Part shown: one piece after another, positions 45,339 to 57,064 of the stretch
Numbering within the stretch: position 1 is the stretch's first letter
Layout of the letters: each line of letters starts with the position of its first letter
Origin: Alphaproteobacteria bacterium
Lineage (GTDB): Bacteria > Pseudomonadota > Alphaproteobacteria > Bin95
Direction of reading: 5' to 3'
Length of the DNA stretch: 64,000 nucleotides
Assembly: GCA_964291285.2 (NCBI GenBank)
Contig: OZ219786.1
Span: 992,001-1,056,000 of the forward strand
Made by a program: the position numbers and the translations under genes
The notes under the pieces: generated by a model
Database searches by the model: none
What the model saw: only the letters and a program-made list of their open reading frames with translations
Told to the model about the DNA's origin: nothing

Positions 45339-46646
45339 TTAGAACTTGGATGCCTCGCTCGCGCTGCTTACCACGGAATTGAGATTTCCAGCGTCACTCG
45401 GTGATGCGCTAGATTGTTTGGATCGGGGTTTCGGGCCACGTCCTGCACCCGGATGAGGATCATAATGGCCCACGAGTGCCATGTACTCAGCTGCTATAGG
45501 CTGAGGGGGCGTGGGCGCAGGCACGAACTCCGAACGAGCAATCGCAAGCGCGGGATTACCACGAATTTTCGTCCCGGAGAGTTGTGCCTTAATTGACCGG
45601 CCGAGAATCTCCGCGAGAAGAGGAGGAGTAGCATTACCGGCTTGCCGCACTTGTTCTCGGTAAGTTCCGTCAAGTTTCCAGAAACTCGGAAAAGTTTGTA
45701 GCCGAAGAATCTCTTCAGGTGCTAGAGGTCGATTGTTCCAATGAAAAGGACCTGTCGCCGGGCCGGGGTTCGCCGGCACCGTCCAAGCGGGCTCAGCCTT
45801 TGCAAGCTTGAGAAGGAATGACCAGAATCGACGTCGATACCCGAAAAGCGGCGGTCCTTTCCCTCGTTCAGTGAAAAACTGATAATTCTGACCTTCGGGT
45901 ATCGACGGAAGCAAACCTGCAAATCGTCCGCTCGAAGCTGGCGGCGTCGCCGGGCACATGTCGTGAAGCGCATCCCAAGCCCGTACTGGATAATCACGAT
46001 GTGTCGTGGCAGGCCATACGGGAATTGCCCCGTTGCGAAACGCAATAATTATTGCGCGCCTGCGTCGCTGTGGAACTCCGAACTCTGCAGCGTTGAGTAT
46101 CCTACAAACTAGCTTATAACGTGTACCGCTTTGACAATTAATGTCGGCAAGGCGCTCTTCTAGAATCGGCAGCGCTGAACGACTGCCCTTCACGAACCCT
46201 GGCACATTCTCGATCAAGATCGCATGGGGGAGCAGCCGCTCTACCAGTGTCAGCAAGCTGTGGAGGGTCCCTGCCCGATGATCGTTGAGCCCGAGAGCAC
46301 CGGTCTGGGACCACTGAGCCGCGTTCGAGAAGGGTTGACAGGGCGGTCCAGCAGCGAGCAACGCAAGTTCCCCCTCGGCGATTCCAAGGTCTCTTGGGAG
46401 CAGATTACTTGCAACTTCGTTGATATCGTGAGGTTTCAGATACTTTCGCCTAGGGCGATTGAGCGCTAGGGACTGCCGCGCTGCTGTATCGTTTTCGATT
46501 CCTCCAATGATACTGAACCCCGCGTGTTCCAAGCCAAGGTCCAGCCCACCGATTCCAGAGAATGCTGACAGGCAGAGAAGCTGCCCGTTGGCAATGCCCT
46601 GTTGCCTGTGGCCCCTCACCATCCACCCCTGCCGAGACTCGCGCAT
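45339..46646 (-). CDS. DNA (cytosine-5)-methyltransferase
   Basis: FSGIGG (I), GPPCQPFS (IV), ENVPG (VI), PQRRRR (VIII), RLQTFP (IX), GNATPP (X); start may lie slightly downstream. Confidence 0.95.
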   Translation of the reverse strand: MRESRQGWMVRGHRQQGIANGQLLCLSAFSGIGGLDLGLEHAGFSIIGGIENDTAARQSLALNRPRRKYLKPHDINEVASNLLPRDLGIAEGELALLAAGPPCQPFSNAAQWSQTGALGLNDHRAGTLHSLLTLVERLLPHAILIENVPGFVKGSRSALPILEERLADINCQSGTRYKLVCRILNAAEFGVPQRRRRAIIIAFRNGAIPVWPATTHRDYPVRAWDALHDMCPATPPASSGRFAGLLPSIPEGQNYQFFTERGKGPPLFGYRRRFWSFLLKLAKAEPAWTVPANPGPATGPFHWNNRPLAPEEILRLQTFPSFWKLDGTYREQVRQAGNATPPLLAEILGRSIKAQLSGTKIRGNPALAIARSEFVPAPTPPQPIAAEYMALVGHYDPHPGAGRGPKPRSKQSSASPSDAGNLNSVVSSASEASKF

Positions 46647-46881
46647 GATTCGACCATTCTACTGATACCAAGAGGCACGACCAGCATAAGCTAGCAGCTT
46701 GAGACTCGCTCTTGGGGCATATCGGATACAAGTCAAGGTTACGCCTCGAAGGTCATGGTTCTGAGAAGGCTTGGGGGTCGCTTCACACTACCATAGTTGC
46801 TGATGGCCGGGGACGATGTCCTAGCAGGGATACCAAACTCGGAACACGACATAATTGTTGCCCCCTGTTCGACGGCTGGTG

Positions 46882-47832
46882 CTAGCCCGCGAGCGGCTCC
46901 ACATCCGCCCCAATCATGGCTTGGATTAGATCCCGCTCGTTAGCGCCAATTTCGTATTTGAACCCCACAAGGCGAAGTCTATCCAAAACGATAGCACCAC
47001 TCTTGGTTGTCAAGAATTCCGTCGTCGGACGCTCGACATGATGGGGTACGGCGAGAAATGGCGACGGTGGAACCCTGGTACCCGTGAAAAGCCTCCATTG
47101 ATCTTGGCTAGGTTCGTTGATTTTGTCCATCCAACTGTCGCTACGACCCACCGTGACTTGGCCGATGAATCCCCAAGTGCCGGGACGCAGTTCCTCTTCC
47201 CAACCGATGTGGCAAAGAATGTCAACTCCTTCGTCATGGGCATTTACACGTCGTGCCGCTGCATTCGGGGCTGCCTTGAGACCAACTTTTTCGCAGGCGA
47301 TTCGCAAGGCGTCTTCAAAAGAACTACCTTTGCGGCGGTGCATAGCTATCCCAGCAGACAGCAAGCCACGACCTTGTAGTACCTTTAATACGATTTGCTC
47401 GAACATCTCGACCGGCCGATGTATCGAATTCAGGCCAAATGCGTGTGTGATGGTCAGGGCGAGAACCGCCGCGTATGCGCTCGCTTCAAGGTCAACGCCG
47501 CACTCAAGTGTGATTGCGTCATTCGTGATCTCGAAAGGATAGCGTTCCGCAAGTACCGCACGACGCTCACCAATCTGCCGAAACACAACTGAGGCCGCTT
47601 CGTGGGCCTTATCCTGATGCTCAGACAAATGTCTCGAATCACCATCAAGGTAATCACCTTCTGGCAATTGAATTAGCTCAAGATCCCAGTCAGCATCAGC
47701 CAAAAAATCGGCGAGAGTTGCCCGCTTCACCGGCTTTCCCTTCAGCGCTAGAAGCTCGACATAGTCCGCCAGTAGCGAAGCTCGCGCATATGGACCATAG
47801 GCGTTAGGTTCAGGCGTCCCGATCACGCTCAT
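46882..47832 (-). CDS. Hypothetical protein, possible PD-(D/E)xK-like nuclease
   Basis: FEQ...HDEGVDIL...GQVTVG...W..K pattern resembles restriction-endonuclease folds; overlaps the upstream gene by 23 bp. Confidence 0.55.
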   Translation of the reverse strand: MSVIGTPEPNAYGPYARASLLADYVELLALKGKPVKRATLADFLADADWDLELIQLPEGDYLDGDSRHLSEHQDKAHEAASVVFRQIGERRAVLAERYPFEITNDAITLECGVDLEASAYAAVLALTITHAFGLNSIHRPVEMFEQIVLKVLQGRGLLSAGIAMHRRKGSSFEDALRIACEKVGLKAAPNAAARRVNAHDEGVDILCHIGWEEELRPGTWGFIGQVTVGRSDSWMDKINEPSQDQWRLFTGTRVPPSPFLAVPHHVERPTTEFLTTKSGAIVLDRLRLVGFKYEIGANERDLIQAMIGADVEPLAG

Positions 47833-48925
47833 CTATCCCGTCTTTAACGATAGCTCGCGCAGAGCGGACCATACGTGACAACTCTTCCATAGCCTGAAAT
47901 AGACTGCTCGACATATCGACGGCTTCTGCTCGCTGAAGGGTCTCCAAGAACAATGCCAAGCTCTTGACAAGCCGCTGAGCGCGCGACTCCAGATCTAGCT
48001 CTTCGACAACCTGTCTTGCTAGACTAAGGTCAGCTGTCCCACGCAGTGTTGTGCGCGCTCGTTCGTTTGCAAGGACTCGTCCGTAGATTGTGACGTCTCG
48101 TGAATCGCCCAACACAGCTCGGCTTCGCTCTGCGGTGCCCCCCAAATCTCCAAGCACTTCTGCCAACTTTTCTCGGTTGATCCCTTCTAATGCTTGTTCG
48201 ATTTCCTGATATGTTCTTGCTCGGCTGAGCTCGACATAATTCCTAATGTCAGCGGAGTTCATGCAACGCAACCAGACTCCGAACCGTTGATCTTGAACAT
48301 AAGTGACGCTTATGCCAAACTCCTCCCGAGCGTAGAGGAGGATACGGATCGCAAGATAAGGATTCCTGACCCCTTGGGCATTACTGCCAACCCGCCGGCC
48401 GAGCTCTCGAAAGGGATCAGTAAATCCCTCGCTTACGAGACGATGGACCCCGGCAAGGATGTAGCGGGCCTTTGCCTCCGGCGGCCATGTTTTCAGTCCG
48501 CCGATATGCCTGAATCCGATATATGCACTTATCTGGTTACGGTTCGCTACAACGATGCAAGGGATCTCTCGGAGCTGTTCTAGGCGTTCCGGCGACAGCT
48601 CAAGGCCGACAAAATCAATGTCGTCAGCTTCCGGAGTTCCATGTAGTATCATGAGCGCCGCCAGTCGTCGATTTCCCTCGACGACTGTATATGTGTCCTC
48701 TTCGCCTTCCCGGACCACCAAAAGCGGCTCTTGCGGAAAGAAGCCGTTGTCTTGGTATGAGTACGCAAGCTCCTCAAGGGCCCCCTGATTATAGAGATAC
48801 CTTAGAATTTCGGACTGTGGCTGTCCGTGAAGCTGTTCTGGAAGCCGCGGATTCTCTTTATCGAGAATTAGGCTGTTTATGGGGAACCACTCAGTAGTTC
48901 GTTCTCTCGGGTCCGTGGCACTCAT
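47810..48925 (-). CDS. ParB/Srx N-terminal domain protein
   Basis: LILDKENPRL, EPLLVV, VVEGNRRLAAL arginine patch. Confidence 0.82.
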   Translation of the reverse strand: MSATDPRERTTEWFPINSLILDKENPRLPEQLHGQPQSEILRYLYNQGALEELAYSYQDNGFFPQEPLLVVREGEEDTYTVVEGNRRLAALMILHGTPEADDIDFVGLELSPERLEQLREIPCIVVANRNQISAYIGFRHIGGLKTWPPEAKARYILAGVHRLVSEGFTDPFRELGRRVGSNAQGVRNPYLAIRILLYAREEFGISVTYVQDQRFGVWLRCMNSADIRNYVELSRARTYQEIEQALEGINREKLAEVLGDLGGTAERSRAVLGDSRDVTIYGRVLANERARTTLRGTADLSLARQVVEELDLESRAQRLVKSLALFLETLQRAEAVDMSSSLFQAMEELSRMVRSARAIVKDGIDERDRDA

Positions 48926-49110
48926 TGAAAATGTTCCCTTACGAGGCGAGTAGAAACGATGATCCAAGCCAAAAGGCTTAGCCTGAAAAAGCCCAGACCC
49001 AGTAGCGGATCACGTAGCCTCCTATGCACGGCTGGTTGGGCCCAACTTCCAGAAGATTGACCCGCCTGACCTGAACGTCAATGCAGTGAGTGTCTGCAGG
49101 AGCCTTTCCT

Positions 49111-50562
49111 GGTCGTGTCCCCAGGGGTGGTGTAGGAGCTGAAGCTTCCGGTGGTAGCTGTGGGTAAGTGGGCCGCCGCCGCGACCGTCTGGAGTCAGGC
49201 GGCGGCGGGCCACTTACCCACAGCGGAGGCCATCGCGGTGCCGGTTAGGGTTGGGCTGTCACAGTCCACCTGACCGGAGGAGTACCACGATGACCACCAC
49301 CGACATGATGACCCTGCGGGCGCTGTTGGAGAAGAGTTCCGACGCCGACCTGCTTCGCGAGATGATCGGGTTCACGGCCGCGCGTCTGATGGCGCTTGAG
49401 GTTGAGGGCCTTGCGGGCGCCGCGCACGGCGAGCGCTCGCCGGACCGGATCACGCAGCGCAACGGCTACCGGGACCGGGTCTGGGAGACGCGGGCCGGCA
49501 CGGTCGAACTGAAGATCCCGAAGCTGCGCAAGGGGAGCTACTTCCCGGGCTTCCTTGAACCGCGGCGGATGGCGGAGAAGGCGCTGACGGCGGTGATCCA
49601 GGAGGCCTACATCAAGGGCGTATCGACCCGCTCGGTGGACGACCTGGTGCAGGCGATGGGCATGTCGGGCATCTCCAAGAGCCAGGTGTCGCGGCTGTGC
49701 GGCGAGATCGACGACAAGATCCGCGACTTCCTCGACCGGCCGCTGGAGGGCGACTGGCCGTATCTCTGGCTTGACGCGACCTATGTGAAGATGCGCGAGG
49801 CCGGGCGCGTCGTCTCGGTCGCGGTCACCATCGCGGTGGCGGTCAACGATCAGGGCCGGCGCGAGGTGCTCGGCATGGCGATCGGCGCGTCCGAGGCCGA
49901 GACCTTCTGGACCGACTTCCTGCGCTCGCTCGCCCGCCGCGGCCTGCGCGGCGTCAAGCTGGTGATCTCCGACGACCACAAGGGCCTGAAGGCCGCCGCC
50001 ACCCGCATCTTCGGCGCCACCTGGCAGAGATGCCGCGTCCACTTCATGCGCAACCTGCTCGCCCATGCCGGCAAGCAGGGCCGGCGCGTCGTCTCCGCCT
50101 TCGTCACTACCGCCTTCGCCCAGGAGGATGCAGACAGCGCCTCCGCCCAGTGGCGCCAGGTCGCCGACCAGCTCAGGCCCAAGGCGCCAAAGCTCGCCGC
50201 CATCATGGACGAGGCCGAGCACGATGTTCTCGCCTACATGACCTTCCCGGCCGCGCACCGCGCCAAGCTGCACTCGACAAACCCGCTCGAACGCCTCCAC
50301 GGCGAGATCAAGCGGCGCACAAACACCGTCGGCATCTTCCCCAACGAGGACGCCATCACCCGGCTGATCGGCGCAATCCTGCTCGAGCAGAACGATGAAT
50401 GGGCAGTCCAGAGAGCCAGATACATGACGCTGGAATCCATCGCTCCCGTGAGCGACAATACAACCGTCAAGTTGCCCGCCGTGGCAGCCTGAGCGTTCCG
50501 GCCCTACCCGCCGGACACCGCTACGGACGCCAGGCTCTTACACCACCCGCGGGGGCACGATC
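49111..50562 (+). mobile_element. IS256 family element, copy 2 (1452 bp, inverted relative to copy 1)
   Basis: Same ends and identical translated transposase; 8-bp TSD CCTTTCCT at 49103-49110 and 50563-50570. Confidence 0.95.
49290..50492 (+). CDS. IS256 family transposase
   Basis: Same protein as copy 1; GGAGG RBS upstream of ATG 49290. Confidence 0.96.
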
Positions 50563-50875
50563 CCTTTCCTTAGCCCTAGAAACTCCAAACAGGTCAACGC
50601 GTTGCCGCACTACGCAGCGTCGAATCTGCCTACTCAACGACACTTCCGCCCCCCTGCTTTCCCGATGCCAGACAATAATGCCGCTCATCGTGCTTTTTCG
50701 TCAACGCCCGACGCCACAGGATGGCCGCGTGCCAGCATCAGGAAACAAGTCTCGATATCTCTCTTAGTGCTTTGTCAGGTGCAGAGCCACGCGAGGACGG
50801 GGCGGCTGGACGAGGCAGGACAGGCTCCCTACTTTCGATAGCTTCGGGACGACAGCCGTCGAAGGAGGGAGCGCC

Positions 50876-51142
50876 ATGGAAGCCGAGCCCAGGGAGCGAC
50901 TGCATCAGCTGGTGGACGCGCTTCCCACCGGCGAACTCCCGGTCGCCGAGCGCTATCTCGAATTCCTGTCCGGGGTCGGGCATCCGTTCGTTCGCGCGCT
51001 CTTTACCGCCCCCGAGGCTGACGAGCCGCTGAGCCACGGGGACCGCGACGCCCTTGAGGAGGGACGCCGCGCCCTTGACGCCGGCGATACCGTCTCCGAT
51101 CGCGAGTTGCGCAGCCGGGCCTGCCAAGCCGCCCGCCCGTAA
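50876..51142 (+). CDS. Small antitoxin-like protein without partner toxin
   Basis: Strong RBS AAGGAGG; RERLHQLVDALP...DEPLS..DRDALEEGRR...G pattern typical of RelE/ParE-associated antitoxins. Confidence 0.5.
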   Translation: MEAEPRERLHQLVDALPTGELPVAERYLEFLSGVGHPFVRALFTAPEADEPLSHGDRDALEEGRRALDAGDTVSDRELRSRACQAARP

Positions 51143-51151
51143 GGCGCGCCG

Positions 51152-51418
51152 CTATTCGCCCGCTTCGGGCGCCGGCTCCCTGCGGCGTATCGAGCCTTCA
51201 AGCAGCCCCTCCACCCGCGCCACACGGTCGGAAAGGCCGCGCAGGTCCGTCGAAACGCGCGCCGAAAGCTCGCTCATATCCTTTGCCAGGCGCTCGGAAA
51301 GGTCCCTGTTGTCCTTCGCCGCGCGCTCGGAGAGGCTGCGCATGTCCCGGTGGATGGTCCACAGGAAACCGATCACGCCGAGCATGAGCCCCGCCAGGAT
51401 GTAAACGCCTTCGTCCAT
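51152..51418 (-). CDS. Small membrane-anchored coiled-coil protein with 11-residue repeats
   Basis: TM helix then DMRSLSERAAK/DNRDLSERLAK/DMSELSARVST/DLRGLSDRVAR. Confidence 0.65.
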   Translation of the reverse strand: MDEGVYILAGLMLGVIGFLWTIHRDMRSLSERAAKDNRDLSERLAKDMSELSARVSTDLRGLSDRVARVEGLLEGSIRRREPAPEAGE

Positions 51419-51469
51419 GGTCCCACCGTACCCGCCCTGCGGCTCCCCACGCAAGCTCCGGCCCCCCGG

Positions 51470-53124
<1,655 letters not shown>

Positions 53125-53261
53125 CCGACAACACAGTCGCTCTCCCGTGCATCGGCGGGGGCTCCGGTCGCCGGCCCTCACGCCTTCGGATTGGGGATTA
53201 TCCGTTTGACTAAATATCAGCCCGTCTCCTAGCCTGTGCTCTTCACAGCGGGAGATCAAGC

Positions 53262-54642
53262 ATGGCGAGGAAATCTGATAGGGTAGAAGGCAGGCGACGC
53301 AGCGGCGACGCAGCGGCGACGCAGCGGCGACGCAGCGGCGACGCAGCGGCGACGCAGCGGCGACGCAGCGGCGACGCAGGAAGCCAACTGGCGCAACCGC
53401 ACCATCTGGACGCGCGACAATCTCCATGTCCTGAGAGGCATGAACAGCGCCACGGTTGATCTCATCTATCTCGACCCGCCCTTCAACTCCAACCGCACCT
53501 ATAGCGCACCCATAGGCTCGGAGGCGGCCGGGGCTGCCTTCAAGGACTCATGGACCTTCGACGACGCGGACCGCGTCTATCTGGCACTGCTGCAAGAGCG
53601 TGACCCGACGACTTTCGCCATAATCGACGCGGCCCGGCTGGCGCACGGGCGCGGCATGGCGGCCTATCTCGGCATGATGGCGCAACGCCTCGTCGAAATG
53701 CGGCGTGTCCTGAAGCCGACCGGCAGCATCTATCTGCATTGTGACCCGTTCGCGTCGCATTATCTCAAGATGCTCATGGACGCGATTTTCGGACGCCTTA
53801 ATCACCGGAACGAGATTATCTGGTGCTATACTGGCCCCGGCTCACCGCATATGCGCCAGTTCAACCGAAAGCACGATACAATCCACTGGTATTCAGTCGG
53901 CGAGACATGGACCTTCAATGCCGACGCCGTGCGTATTCAGCACCATGGCAAGACCAAGGCGAATTTCAAAGACGGTTTGCGCGGTTCTGGATTTATCGAG
54001 GGCGAATATGGGCTGACGGACGGCAAAGTCCCTGAAACATGGTGGCCGCAAGAGAAAGGAAATGGACTCGCCATAGCGCCCCGCCAAAAGGCGCAATATG
54101 TCGGCTATCCGACGCAGAAGCCGCTTGCCCTTCTGGACCGCATCATCAAGGCGTCGAGTAACGAGGGCGATGTCGTGCTGGACCCATTTTGCGGTTGCGC
54201 GACGGCCGCCGTGGCGGCGGAGCGGCTACAGCGCCAGTGGATCGGCATCGACATTTCCGCGAAGGCGGCCGAGCTCGTCACGACGCGCCTGCAAGGCATC
54301 CTCGACGAAATCCCGCTCTACAAGACCGGCGATGTTGTCCACAGGACGGACCAGCCGGGCCGCACGGACCTGGGAGACCTTCCCCACTACCGGACGCACC
54401 TGGACTTGCTCTACGGCCAGCAGGAAGGCTTTTGCGGCGGTTGCGGGGAGCATTTCCGCAAGCGCAATCTGACGGTGGACCATATCGTCCCGCAAGCGCA
54501 TGGCGGGACCGACCACCTTGAGAACCTTTGGCTGCTGTGCGGCGCCTGCAATTCGTCGAAGGGAACGCGCTCGCAAGAGCAATTCCTGAAAGAGCGTATG
54601 CAGAAGCGCGCCGCCCTGTTCCCGTGGCTGATAGAGGCGTGA
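53262..54642 (+). CDS. Beta-class N4/N6 DNA methyltransferase fused to C-terminal HNH endonuclease; out of frame at the 11-bp repeat
   Basis: NRTIWTRDNLHVLRGM, LDPPF (IV), YPTQKP, LDPFCGCAT (I), CGGC...VDHIVP..HGG...NL..LCGACNSSK (HNH); main ORF 53440-54642. Confidence 0.88.
53293..53379 (+). repeat. 11-bp tandem repeat (GGCGACGCAGC) x7 plus 10/11 of an eighth unit
   Basis: Direct count; lies 31 nt after ATG 53262 in the 5' coding region of the MTase-HNH gene. Confidence 0.95.
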
Positions 54643-55611
54643 CTAGTATGGCCGCGCCCCGCTCGCCAGCCCGTTCTCGGCAATCAGCCGGGCGTAGGTC
54701 AGGCGCTTCCCGACCATGCCGGCCGCCAGTCCCGCCATTTGTGCCAGCGTCCCGGCTTCGCGGATGTTGTGCCGCCCGGCGAACTCCGCGATGTAGCGGT
54801 GAAGGTGCTTCGGCGAGAACTTGTGATAGACGCCCTTGTGCGCCCGCTTCAACATGGCCCAGAAGCTCTCGATCCCGTTGGTATGCGCCTGCTGGCGGAC
54901 ATACTCGCCAGCGGAGTGATTGACCGCTTCATGCTGAAACCACACTTGCAGCGCCCGATAGACCGTCGCCTCGTCCGAATAGACCGTCGTGCCGATGCGG
55001 GCGTTGTGAGCGGCGAAGCCTGCCAGCGACGGCGCGTCCGCGTGCTGGACATGGCGGGCGCGAACCTGCTTCGTGCCCCGGTCCTTCACGCCAACGACAA
55101 TGTCCTTGCCGACAGCGCCGCGACCCTCAAGGCTCTCCCGCTTCGCCTTGTGCATGTTCTTGCGCAGCCCGCCCAGATAGACCTCGTCCACCTCTACCGG
55201 CCCGTCCATGGGCGGCTCGTCGTCGCGCTTGAAGGCTTCGCGGATGCGCTGGAGCATGAACCATGCGGTTGCCTGCCGGACGCCTATGTCCCGGCTCAGC
55301 TTCACGCTGGAGACGCCCTTGAGCGAAGTCAGGTGCAGGTAGATCGCCCAAACCCACTTGCGGAACGAGAGCTTGGACCGCTCCATGACGGTGCCGATGC
55401 GGACGCTGAAATGCCGCTTGCAGCCGGGGCAGTAGTAGGGCATCGGCGGGTTGCCGGTGCATTCAATCGTCTCGGTATGGCCGCAGCGCGGGCAATGGCG
55501 ACCGTTCGGCCAGACCTTCGCCTCAAACCATTCGCGGGCGCTTTCCTCGGTCGGGAACATCTCTCCCAACTCCATGATGGTCACGCCTTCGCGGTAGTGC
55601 TTGCCAGCCAT
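54643..55611 (-). CDS. IS1595/ISXO2-like DDE transposase with zinc ribbon
   Basis: CPRC...CPGC, VEVDEVYLGG, YSDE, HTNGIESFW, KHLHRY. Confidence 0.95.
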   Translation of the reverse strand: MAGKHYREGVTIMELGEMFPTEESAREWFEAKVWPNGRHCPRCGHTETIECTGNPPMPYYCPGCKRHFSVRIGTVMERSKLSFRKWVWAIYLHLTSLKGVSSVKLSRDIGVRQATAWFMLQRIREAFKRDDEPPMDGPVEVDEVYLGGLRKNMHKAKRESLEGRGAVGKDIVVGVKDRGTKQVRARHVQHADAPSLAGFAAHNARIGTTVYSDEATVYRALQVWFQHEAVNHSAGEYVRQQAHTNGIESFWAMLKRAHKGVYHKFSPKHLHRYIAEFAGRHNIREAGTLAQMAGLAAGMVGKRLTYARLIAENGLASGARPY

Positions 55612-55683
55612 GACGGCCTCCGTTCCGACTGCTTGAGTCAGAATATGGGGACTCGCCGTCATTTAGTCAAGCGGATAATCCCC

Positions 55684-57064
55684 CAGTAATGCGCGCCAGA
55701 ACCGTATCCGGCCCGACGATCCGGGCGACATAGCTCAGGCCGAAGCCCGACGAGACCGTGCCAGGCGTCAGCGACACCGACTCGCGTCCTTCGCCCAGCG
55801 TCGTGCTGATCTCCTTGAGATAGGCTCGATCCAACAGGTCGTAGAACTGCGACGGTCTACCTGCGAGGCTGGCAAGCTCGAACGACTTGACCCGCCAGAC
55901 CTTGCCGACGCTGTTCATCGCATCGACCGTTGCCTGCAGGCTCGAACTATTCCGGAAGGACGGCGTGACTACCGACACGCCGCCCCCGGAGATCACGACG
56001 TCTACCGACGAACCGAACAGCTTCGGCAATACGCCCGACAGTCCGATCTCGAAATCATGCGCCCGGTCGAACTGCACCGAATAAAGGTAGATCGAGAGCG
56101 ACACCGGCCGCAGCGTGTGCCGGTCCAGATGCTGCAGATAGTCCCGGACTCTGGCAACCGCCCTCGGAGCGCCCCGCACGCTTACCGTCCCGGACGACTC
56201 CGATACCAGCACCTCGGCGCCATCCCCGGCCGCGTCGCAAACGAGATCGGTAATCTCCTCCCACGGCTTGTATTCCATGGAAGCGTCCAGCGACTGCTTC
56301 GTGCCCCCCGAAGTCTCCTCGCCCGCCTCGGCCTCCGTCGACACCTTCACATCGTATTTTTGCGTTCCGACCAGTGCATTGATGCTGAAGGTGCGGCTCT
56401 CGGAGCGCACGATGTCGATCGCCCCTGAAACCTCGTCGTATCGCCAGAACCAGCCCAACTCCCCGGTCCACACTTCAAGCAGACGATCCAATGGCCCCGT
56501 CCACACGCCGCTGTCCGGCACCAGCTCGTCCGTCAGCGATTGCATCCATTCGGAGCTCTCGCCCGACCGCCGCAACGCAGCACTTTCGCAAGAGCCGTGG
56601 CCTTCCGCCCTCGGCTTGTCTTCCTCTCCGACCCACCGGACAACCAGCCCGGAGGCTACAGCGATCCGACGCCGCAACACCTCCGTAGCCTCCTCCGGAG
56701 ACACCTCTGGAGACACCAAGTCACCCACCGGCACAGTCACGCCGACTTCGCTGACCAGATCCTCGGGTAGTGGTGCCGCTTCGGTCTGCACCGCCGACAG
56801 CGCGAGATAAGGCGCCGCAGACTCCCGAAGCGACCGAAAGCCGGAACGGTCGGGACCAGAGGGCCGCAGCTCCCTTACTTTCTGCTCGATGGCTGCCTTG
56901 TTTTCCGGGTCCCCCTCAGACTCCGCCCAGCCGCAGCCTGCCACCCACCAGCACGCCGCAAGAAGCGCAGCAAACTCAATTCCGCGACGCCCACAAATCC
57001 CGCCACCGAATGACAGACTGTTGACAACTCTCGGCGAATCCAACAGTACCTCTCCCATGTCCAC
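55684..57064 (-). pseudogene. PilN/BfpB-like type IVB pilus secretin fragment, 3' end cut by IS1595
   Basis: Signal-like N-terminus, WTGPLDRLL, SESSGTVSV, YLKEISTT...LTPGTVSSGF; stop codon lies inside the IS inverted repeat. Confidence 0.55.

Follow-up and report, generated by a model that had tools for sequence, protein, structure and literature searches.

Within the window (the whole 64,000-nucleotide stretch of DNA that was analysed), an element at positions 53193-55683 was found to be bounded by 23-bp inverted repeats with one mismatch, which form the longest inverted pair between 50 and 60 kb and extend imperfectly to 37 nt. The element contains two genes only, a cargo gene on the + strand that fuses a methyltransferase to an HNH domain and a transposase on the - strand; the two are convergent, and their stop codons abut at 54642/54643. 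A first-pass annotation had described 23-bp repeats enclosing an IS1595 transposase together with a beta-class methyltransferase-HNH gene convergent to it, with abutting stops and no further genes. Repeat and domain searches and a rereading of the frames agreed with this description. The parts it named were all present, and an 11-bp array and a missing target duplication, which it had not stated, were added to the anatomy. The features were as follows:

53185..53192, no strand: left 8-bp flank, identical to the 8 bp on the right of the C3 2119247-2121671 copy

53193..53215, + strand: left terminal inverted repeat (23 bp), from the repeat search

53206..53235, + strand: putative inward cargo promoter, with a -35-like hexamer within the repeat, an 18-nt spacer and a weak -10-like hexamer, read by eye

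53250..53292, + strand: ribosome-binding site, ATG (53262) and short leader, taken as the true cargo start; similar leaders occur in L141 and L014

53293..53379, + strand: perfect 11-bp tandem array of 7.9 units, which sets the reading frame and is now out of frame

53380..54370, + strand: body of the beta-class amino-methyltransferase, with DPPF at 53473, FCGCA near 54187 and a variable target-recognition region

54433..54570, + strand: C-terminal HNH nuclease domain (CxxC, DH, N, CxxCN); the gene stops at 54642

54643..55611, - strand: intact IS1595-family DDE transposase of 322 aa with a zinc ribbon, from profile matches

55642..55670, - strand: promoter-like site for the transposase, with its -35 within the right repeat; weak (1 found versus 0.5 expected in shuffles)

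55661..55683, - strand: right terminal inverted repeat, from the repeat search

55684..55691, no strand: right 8-bp flank, identical to the 8 bp on the left of the C3 2119247-2121671 copy

55684..57064, - strand: 5' portion of a secretin-like gene that the insertion interrupts, with the 3' portion next to the C3 copy; both Pfam matches are below the curated cut-off

The transposase scored 185 bits against NCBIfam NF033547 (cut-off, 75), matched Pfam DDE_Tnp_IS1595 (PF12762) and its zinc ribbon (PF12760), and had intact acidic motifs. The cargo, in a single frame, matched N6_N4_Mtase (E 4.6e-46) and HNH (E 4.9e-14), with DPPF preceding FCGCA. The cargo promoter was missed by a scan for consensus promoters; the related locus L014 has comparable hexamers around a 17-nt spacer that differs in sequence. 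These sequence features place the element in the IS1595 family, as a passenger-carrying member, and its ends fit the end-motif consensus of the ISNwi subgroup, to which it may belong. The family was reportedly set out by Siguier, Gagnevin and Chandler in 2009 and is said to include transporter IS with passenger genes. The element shares with such transporter IS a zinc-ribbon DDE transposase, short inverted repeats at the termini, an 8-bp duplication and a single passenger, but differs in that its passenger is a tandem-repeat-gated methyltransferase-HNH fusion. The term tIS (transporter IS) is in use in passages of PMC7986276.

A genome scan with the terminal repeat, allowing up to 5 mismatches, found it solely at the 8 ends of 4 element copies, which were at least 99.9% identical outside the array and all carried the methyltransferase-HNH cargo. 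Perfect 8-bp target duplications flanked two of the four. Flank comparison revealed no target duplication around the window copy, because this copy and the one at C3 2119247-2121671 hold each other's flanks; the secretin-like gene is split accordingly, with its 5' part to the right of the window copy and the continuing frame to the left of the C3 copy (weak Pfam matches). The flank swap reflects either an exchange between copies by recombination, a replicative rearrangement or a mis-join in the assembly. In run X1, possibly from the source sample, the element formed one 2425-bp contig with a depth of 497, a value that agrees with four copies given the depth of 129 in the flank. One contig of run X2 (labelled sponge metagenome) contained a related element that has the same tail-to-tail junction, and run X12 a related transposase of ∼93% identity. 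The element moves as a unit, cargo included. This upheld the first-pass view of it as self-mobile, through four copies, 8-bp duplications on two, and the same cargo in each copy returned by the search with the inverted repeat that had been proposed beforehand. Its description as minimal was not retained, since units of 1.4 to 1.5 kb without a transposase exist (L004, L033, and L056).

The methyltransferase part displays the beta-class order, with the catalytic DPPF before the SAM-binding FxGxx motif and the recognition region between them. Its nearest solved folds were CcrM, M.BceJIV, M.MboIIA, and M.RsrI, and a PADLOC match to MTase_III (E 3e-47) indicated a Mod-like beta-class core. Among 35 sequences, residues C352, C355, D367, and H368 of the HNH domain were invariant, and N382, C387, C390, and N391 were found in at least 90%. 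Compared with L014, which bears a different repeat from the window element and is also off-frame, the N-terminal part was 89% identical, the C-terminal methyltransferase part 93%, and the HNH domain 90%, with dN/dS values of 0.07, 0.15, and 0.08, respectively. The recognition region between was only 24% identical, and such divergence between conserved flanks suggests that recognition regions are exchanged among close relatives. Among seven chosen proteins, relatives were found in which Mrr-like or T5orf172 domains replace the HNH domain on the same core.

The predicted monomer had a mean pLDDT of 76.8, with values of <50 at residues 153-161, 181-221, and 224-244, within the recognition region. 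A predicted two-copy model scored 0.78 versus 0.00 for the best control, with runs agreeing in at least 92% of contacts and pLDDT of at least 73, and placed the predicted dimer interface within the methyltransferase part. Of 30 solved pairs, 20 attained the mark used to call a dimer, as did 1 of 23 single chains, and the model's pass probably reflects likeness to solved beta-class dimers.

The 11-bp array sits between the ATG at 53262, which is preceded by the ribosome-binding site, and the first conserved strand of the enzyme; it is thus a perfect 5' coding repeat whose unit is not a multiple of three and which sets the frame. Two copies, including the window copy, contain 7.9 units and the other two 1.9 units, although the long and short alleles otherwise differ by no more than two substitutions. 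The gene would be in frame at 3, 6, or 9 units; both observed lengths are out of frame, and all four copies are therefore out of frame between the ATG and the enzyme body. As assembled, none of the four should make the full enzyme. The long form of 7.9 units comes from the assembly, in which two copies agree; the contigs of run X1, an output that drops variants, contained the 2-unit form only and no in-frame allele of the element. An ATG at 53440 was considered as an alternative true start and rejected, as it would drop the invariant D13-N14-L15 strand and a helix, and its Met is not conserved among 35 relatives.

Type IIG enzymes in the narrow sense have a gamma-class methyltransferase with an N-terminal PD-(D/E)XK nuclease, and the window protein, with its beta order and C-terminal HNH domain, falls outside that group. 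By having methyltransferase and nuclease domains in one polypeptide, it belongs with the one-chain Type IIC/IIG enzymes; Type IIC is defined by this arrangement in passages of PMC12707154. A one-chain restriction-modification (RM) role is plausible for such a sequence. The first-pass proposal of an RM system encoded by one polypeptide accordingly stands as far as the conserved HNH residues and purifying selection carry it, but not as a system working now, with four copies out of frame.

A protein search returned 505 genome and 548 metagenome loci, of which the best 80 of each were used. Record titles among the matches listed named Alphaproteobacteria, Gammaproteobacteria, Poribacteria, Dehalococcoidia, and others; many of these relatives we take to be sponge symbionts. 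Passages of PMC11410982 describe sponge microbiomes as rich in RM systems. Of 79 loci examined, 21 were enclosed by inverted repeats and a perfect 8-bp duplication, and an IS1595 transposase match was present in 18 of these and absent from 3, so that the counter-case foreseen at the outset, in which methyltransferase-HNH homologues would never be found inside IS1595 repeats, did not materialize. With full flanks available, an IS1595 transposase was located within 2.5 kb of 22/58 HNH-fused genes versus 4/29 others, approximate counts based on five query transposases and a regex HNH call. The transposase was mostly upstream of the gene in relatives, and the convergent layout was rarer. Contig C5 of this genome contains a related gene after an IS1595 transposase and, at 335546-336886, an in-frame relative; four near-identical repeat-free loci (L008-L011) were likewise in frame.

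At E 1e-60, a family member was found in 1 of 16 same-genus genomes (57% identity) and in 4 of 60 relatives overall, where a genome without a match may still hold a member; the presence in 1 of 16 fits horizontal arrival. On viral contigs, 3 of 67 scored genes were HNH-fused and none of the three had a repeat, so the main vehicle does not appear to be phages. The IS1595 element is not the unique vehicle, as the same cargo family is also carried on IS1-family elements in this genome. Such IS1-family elements with a related methyltransferase-HNH gene were observed in G000 at C3 12088-15226, near 784938-786230, and at 1268788-1271925, with poly-C runs of 10, 10, and 9, two being in frame and one out.

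Several further arrangements were recorded among the relatives. Three copies of an IS1595 element with separate methyltransferase and HNH frames lie in this genome at G000 C2 1112284-1114857, C3 1207869-1210446, and C1 811247-813822, and a further IS1595 element, at C3 1124272-1126886, has a split transposase and a methyltransferase frame of greater length. In genome G030, a single methyltransferase with a weak Mrr-like match at its C terminus accounted for 21 matches (L194-L220); in the fetched loci it lay next to an IS1595 transposase, in frame and repeat-free. The closest of the matches listed, L237 (G001 C3 3264000-3272000), has the same left end and no more than a fragment of the transposase, with no right end located; it looks like a decaying element with intact, off-frame cargo.

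Repeats at the 5' end were then counted under a strict rule, which replaced an earlier looser rule (12/77 versus 1/76); another loose count gave many chance matches and was discarded. A repeat ending just before the enzyme body was present in 11 of 67 HNH-fused genes and in none of 78 other relatives, drawn from the best 80 of 505 genome and best 80 of 548 metagenome loci (Fisher p 1.3e-4, a value overstated since kin are not independent). The rate was lower in a second set, where 2 of the 39 non-viral HNH-fused genes had a repeat, as did 1 of the 6 others. Internal control windows gave 8/564 and 4/336 matches, and the 8 that were listed were all single-base runs. Unit lengths were 1 (e.g., poly-C), 5, 7, 8, and 11 nt, never a multiple of three. 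Repeat-free relatives predominated, at 56/67 in the first set and 37/39 of the non-viral HNH genes in the second, which argues that the family can spread without the switch and that having one is optional.

Among multi-base arrays, 1 of 25 genes was in frame (1/24 in the first set, plus one off in the second), although 18 of the 25 came from genome G002 and starts were picked by script. There was a bias within the off state, with 16 of 24 genes in one phase and the one later gene in the same phase; both off phases occurred. The sole in-frame multi-base gene, L222, has a frameshift before the HNH domain, a single case that may be a sequencing error. Single-base runs, which are open to sequencing error, were in frame in 5 of 12 genes of the first set and 0 of 2 scorable genes of the second. 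The two short copies of the window element fell below the strict rule and hence were left out of these counts. In G002, an unrelated IS1595 element with the same convergent layout was present in three copies that differ in a 5-nt array, and a paralogue set shared an 8-nt array of 1.6 to 5.6 units.

Other runs and arrays were noted in passing. Runs of 8 to 12 G, C, or A residues were seen inside the gene body of L002, L021, L036, L203, L004, and L056, and internal switches are possible in L056 and L203, given their short frames. A repeated cassette of ∼2.5 to 3 kb in G000 (C1 60423, 801137, and 827970; C3 404706, 406774, and 1623951; C5 393102) has, next to a gene that is porin-like by eye, perfect 7-nt arrays of 9 to 26 units; the cassette gave no methyltransferase or IS1595 match and is possibly a second repeat-switch family in this host. 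At G000 C4 57596, a 7-nt array of 23 units lies in the 5' part of a long frame that is surface protein-like in appearance.

The element is best read, with somewhat better than even confidence, as a mobile, phase-variable, one-polypeptide RM-like cassette on an IS1595 transporter element that is now off. Slipped-strand changes in the 11-bp repeat would switch the enzyme, and slippage would give a minority of in-frame cells. In these cells the enzyme would form a methyltransferase dimer that recognises a short site by means of the variable region and methylates host DNA there, at N6-adenine or N4-cytosine, and unmethylated incoming DNA would be nicked or cut close to such a site by the fused HNH domain. 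The off bias may reflect the cost of the nuclease, a mostly-off state limiting self-damage. The off state would also let new copies arrive harmlessly and may ease entry into new hosts, and a rotating minority of on cells would restrict phages and plasmids. Counted against this reading are that no in-frame allele was seen, that a minority of the family has a repeat, and that 18 of the 25 multi-base cases derive from one genome.

A rather unlikely alternative is that the cassette is a mobile phasevarion, in which methylation and gene regulation are what matters and the HNH domain nicks weakly or aids DNA binding, with no restriction. The closest solved folds, CcrM and M.BceJIV, are solitary beta methyltransferases, repeat-switched Type III mod genes act in this way in passages of PMC7383803, and the in-frame L222 has its frameshift (one case, possibly a sequencing error) before the HNH domain; such a role would, however, sit poorly with the conserved catalytic and zinc residues of the HNH domain, its dN/dS near 0.1, and the swapping of three unrelated nuclease types on the same core. 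It is improbable that out-of-frame alleles instead yield a low, constant level of enzyme through transcriptional or ribosomal slippage. The strong off bias with an intact body, with 1 of 24 in frame and 16 plus one later gene in one phase, is what such dosing would predict, but the two off phases are both represented, copies differ widely in array length, and to our knowledge GC-rich units of 5 to 11 nt are not recognised slippage signals.

Quite improbable, too, is that the repeat inactivated a costly gene and that the transposon now spreads a silent passenger. All four copies are off and the X1 contigs yielded no in-frame allele, as this would have it, but the body is intact in 4/4 copies, different units recur at one position, and purifying selection is seen between off-frame relatives at dS 0.5 to 1.3. 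The gene may still have been inactivated recently. The strong form of the first-pass reading, a constitutive addiction or defence module forcing its own retention, is very improbable: many repeat-free relatives are in frame and multiplying (e.g., L008-L011 and C5 335546-336886), but the window element is out of frame in every copy, and as switching off equals gene loss, strong post-segregational killing should purge off alleles and off copies should not dominate.

The reading as a switchable, mobile RM-like cassette may be widened, tentatively and with clearly less than even confidence, to a mobile combinatorial immune repertoire. A class of one-chain RM enzymes, built on a beta methyltransferase with exchangeable recognition and nuclease domains (HNH, Mrr-like, and GIY-YIG-like), would then be spread across phyla on IS1595 and IS1 elements. 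Repeats that evolved independently would hold most copies off, the cells of a genome rich in paralogues (18 repeat-bearing genes in G002) would each express their own small subset of specificities, and the off state would permit a transposon that bears a nuclease to enter a naive host.

Repeat-switched RM genes and transposon-like RM units are each known; every part of the element has a precedent, and the combination was not found described. A literature search gave no description of a repeat-gated methyltransferase-HNH gene on an IS, with the founding IS1595 paper, ISfinder, REBASE, and supplements as places that may list one. A precedent among single genes is Cj0031 of Campylobacter jejuni, which is chromosomal and has a poly-G tract and a gamma-class methyltransferase with a PD-(D/E)XK nuclease. 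Cj0031 is a phase-variable Type IIG gene encoding both nuclease and methyltransferase, whose phase variation alters methylation and phage restriction (PMC4889913). A single, repeat-switched gene for nuclease and methyltransferase is thus shared, as predicted here from sequence. Unlike Cj0031, the window gene is of the beta class, has a C-terminal HNH domain and a 5' 11-bp repeat, and resides on an IS.

Transposon-like RM units within inverted repeats and 8-bp duplications were described by Furuta et al. in 2010 in Xanthomonas oryzae and Neisseria gonorrhoeae, the latter unit containing a Type IIG homologue (passages of PMC2853133). The search that yielded them had first set aside cases linked to mobility genes, and the authors left the transposase open. 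The window element, in contrast, has its transposase inside the ends, and the passages mention neither a repeat switch nor a methyltransferase-HNH fusion. Simple repeats switch expression in 17.4% of mod genes (passages of PMC7383803), and the beta-class core, the exchangeable recognition region, and simple-repeat switching are common to the Type III mod genes as well as the window gene. In contrast to Type III systems, the element has no adjacent res helicase-nuclease gene, the nuclease is fused, and the unit is an IS; the window protein is also ∼200 aa shorter than the solved Mod subunits among its listed fold matches, and it was not classed as Type III.

If the favoured reading is correct, the element unites the repeat-switched RM genes of host-adapted pathogens with RM genes in transposon-like units. 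It would suggest a way for a one-chain nuclease-methylase to be transferred horizontally while sparing the recipient, by arriving off and being on in few cells, and the 2.5-kb size of the unit makes this safe-arrival idea testable. The family is also a potential source of compact putative methyltransferase-HNH enzymes with many recognition regions.

To the left of the element, window positions 49251-53124 hold an IS256-type transposase, a short HTH transposase-like frame, and a many-copy IS110 transposase. Further left, a block of lower GC (51 to 56%) at 45339-48967 encodes a C5 cytosine methyltransferase, a 316-aa protein, and a ParB-like protein with PD-Lambda-5_A matches, and is likely a defence island.
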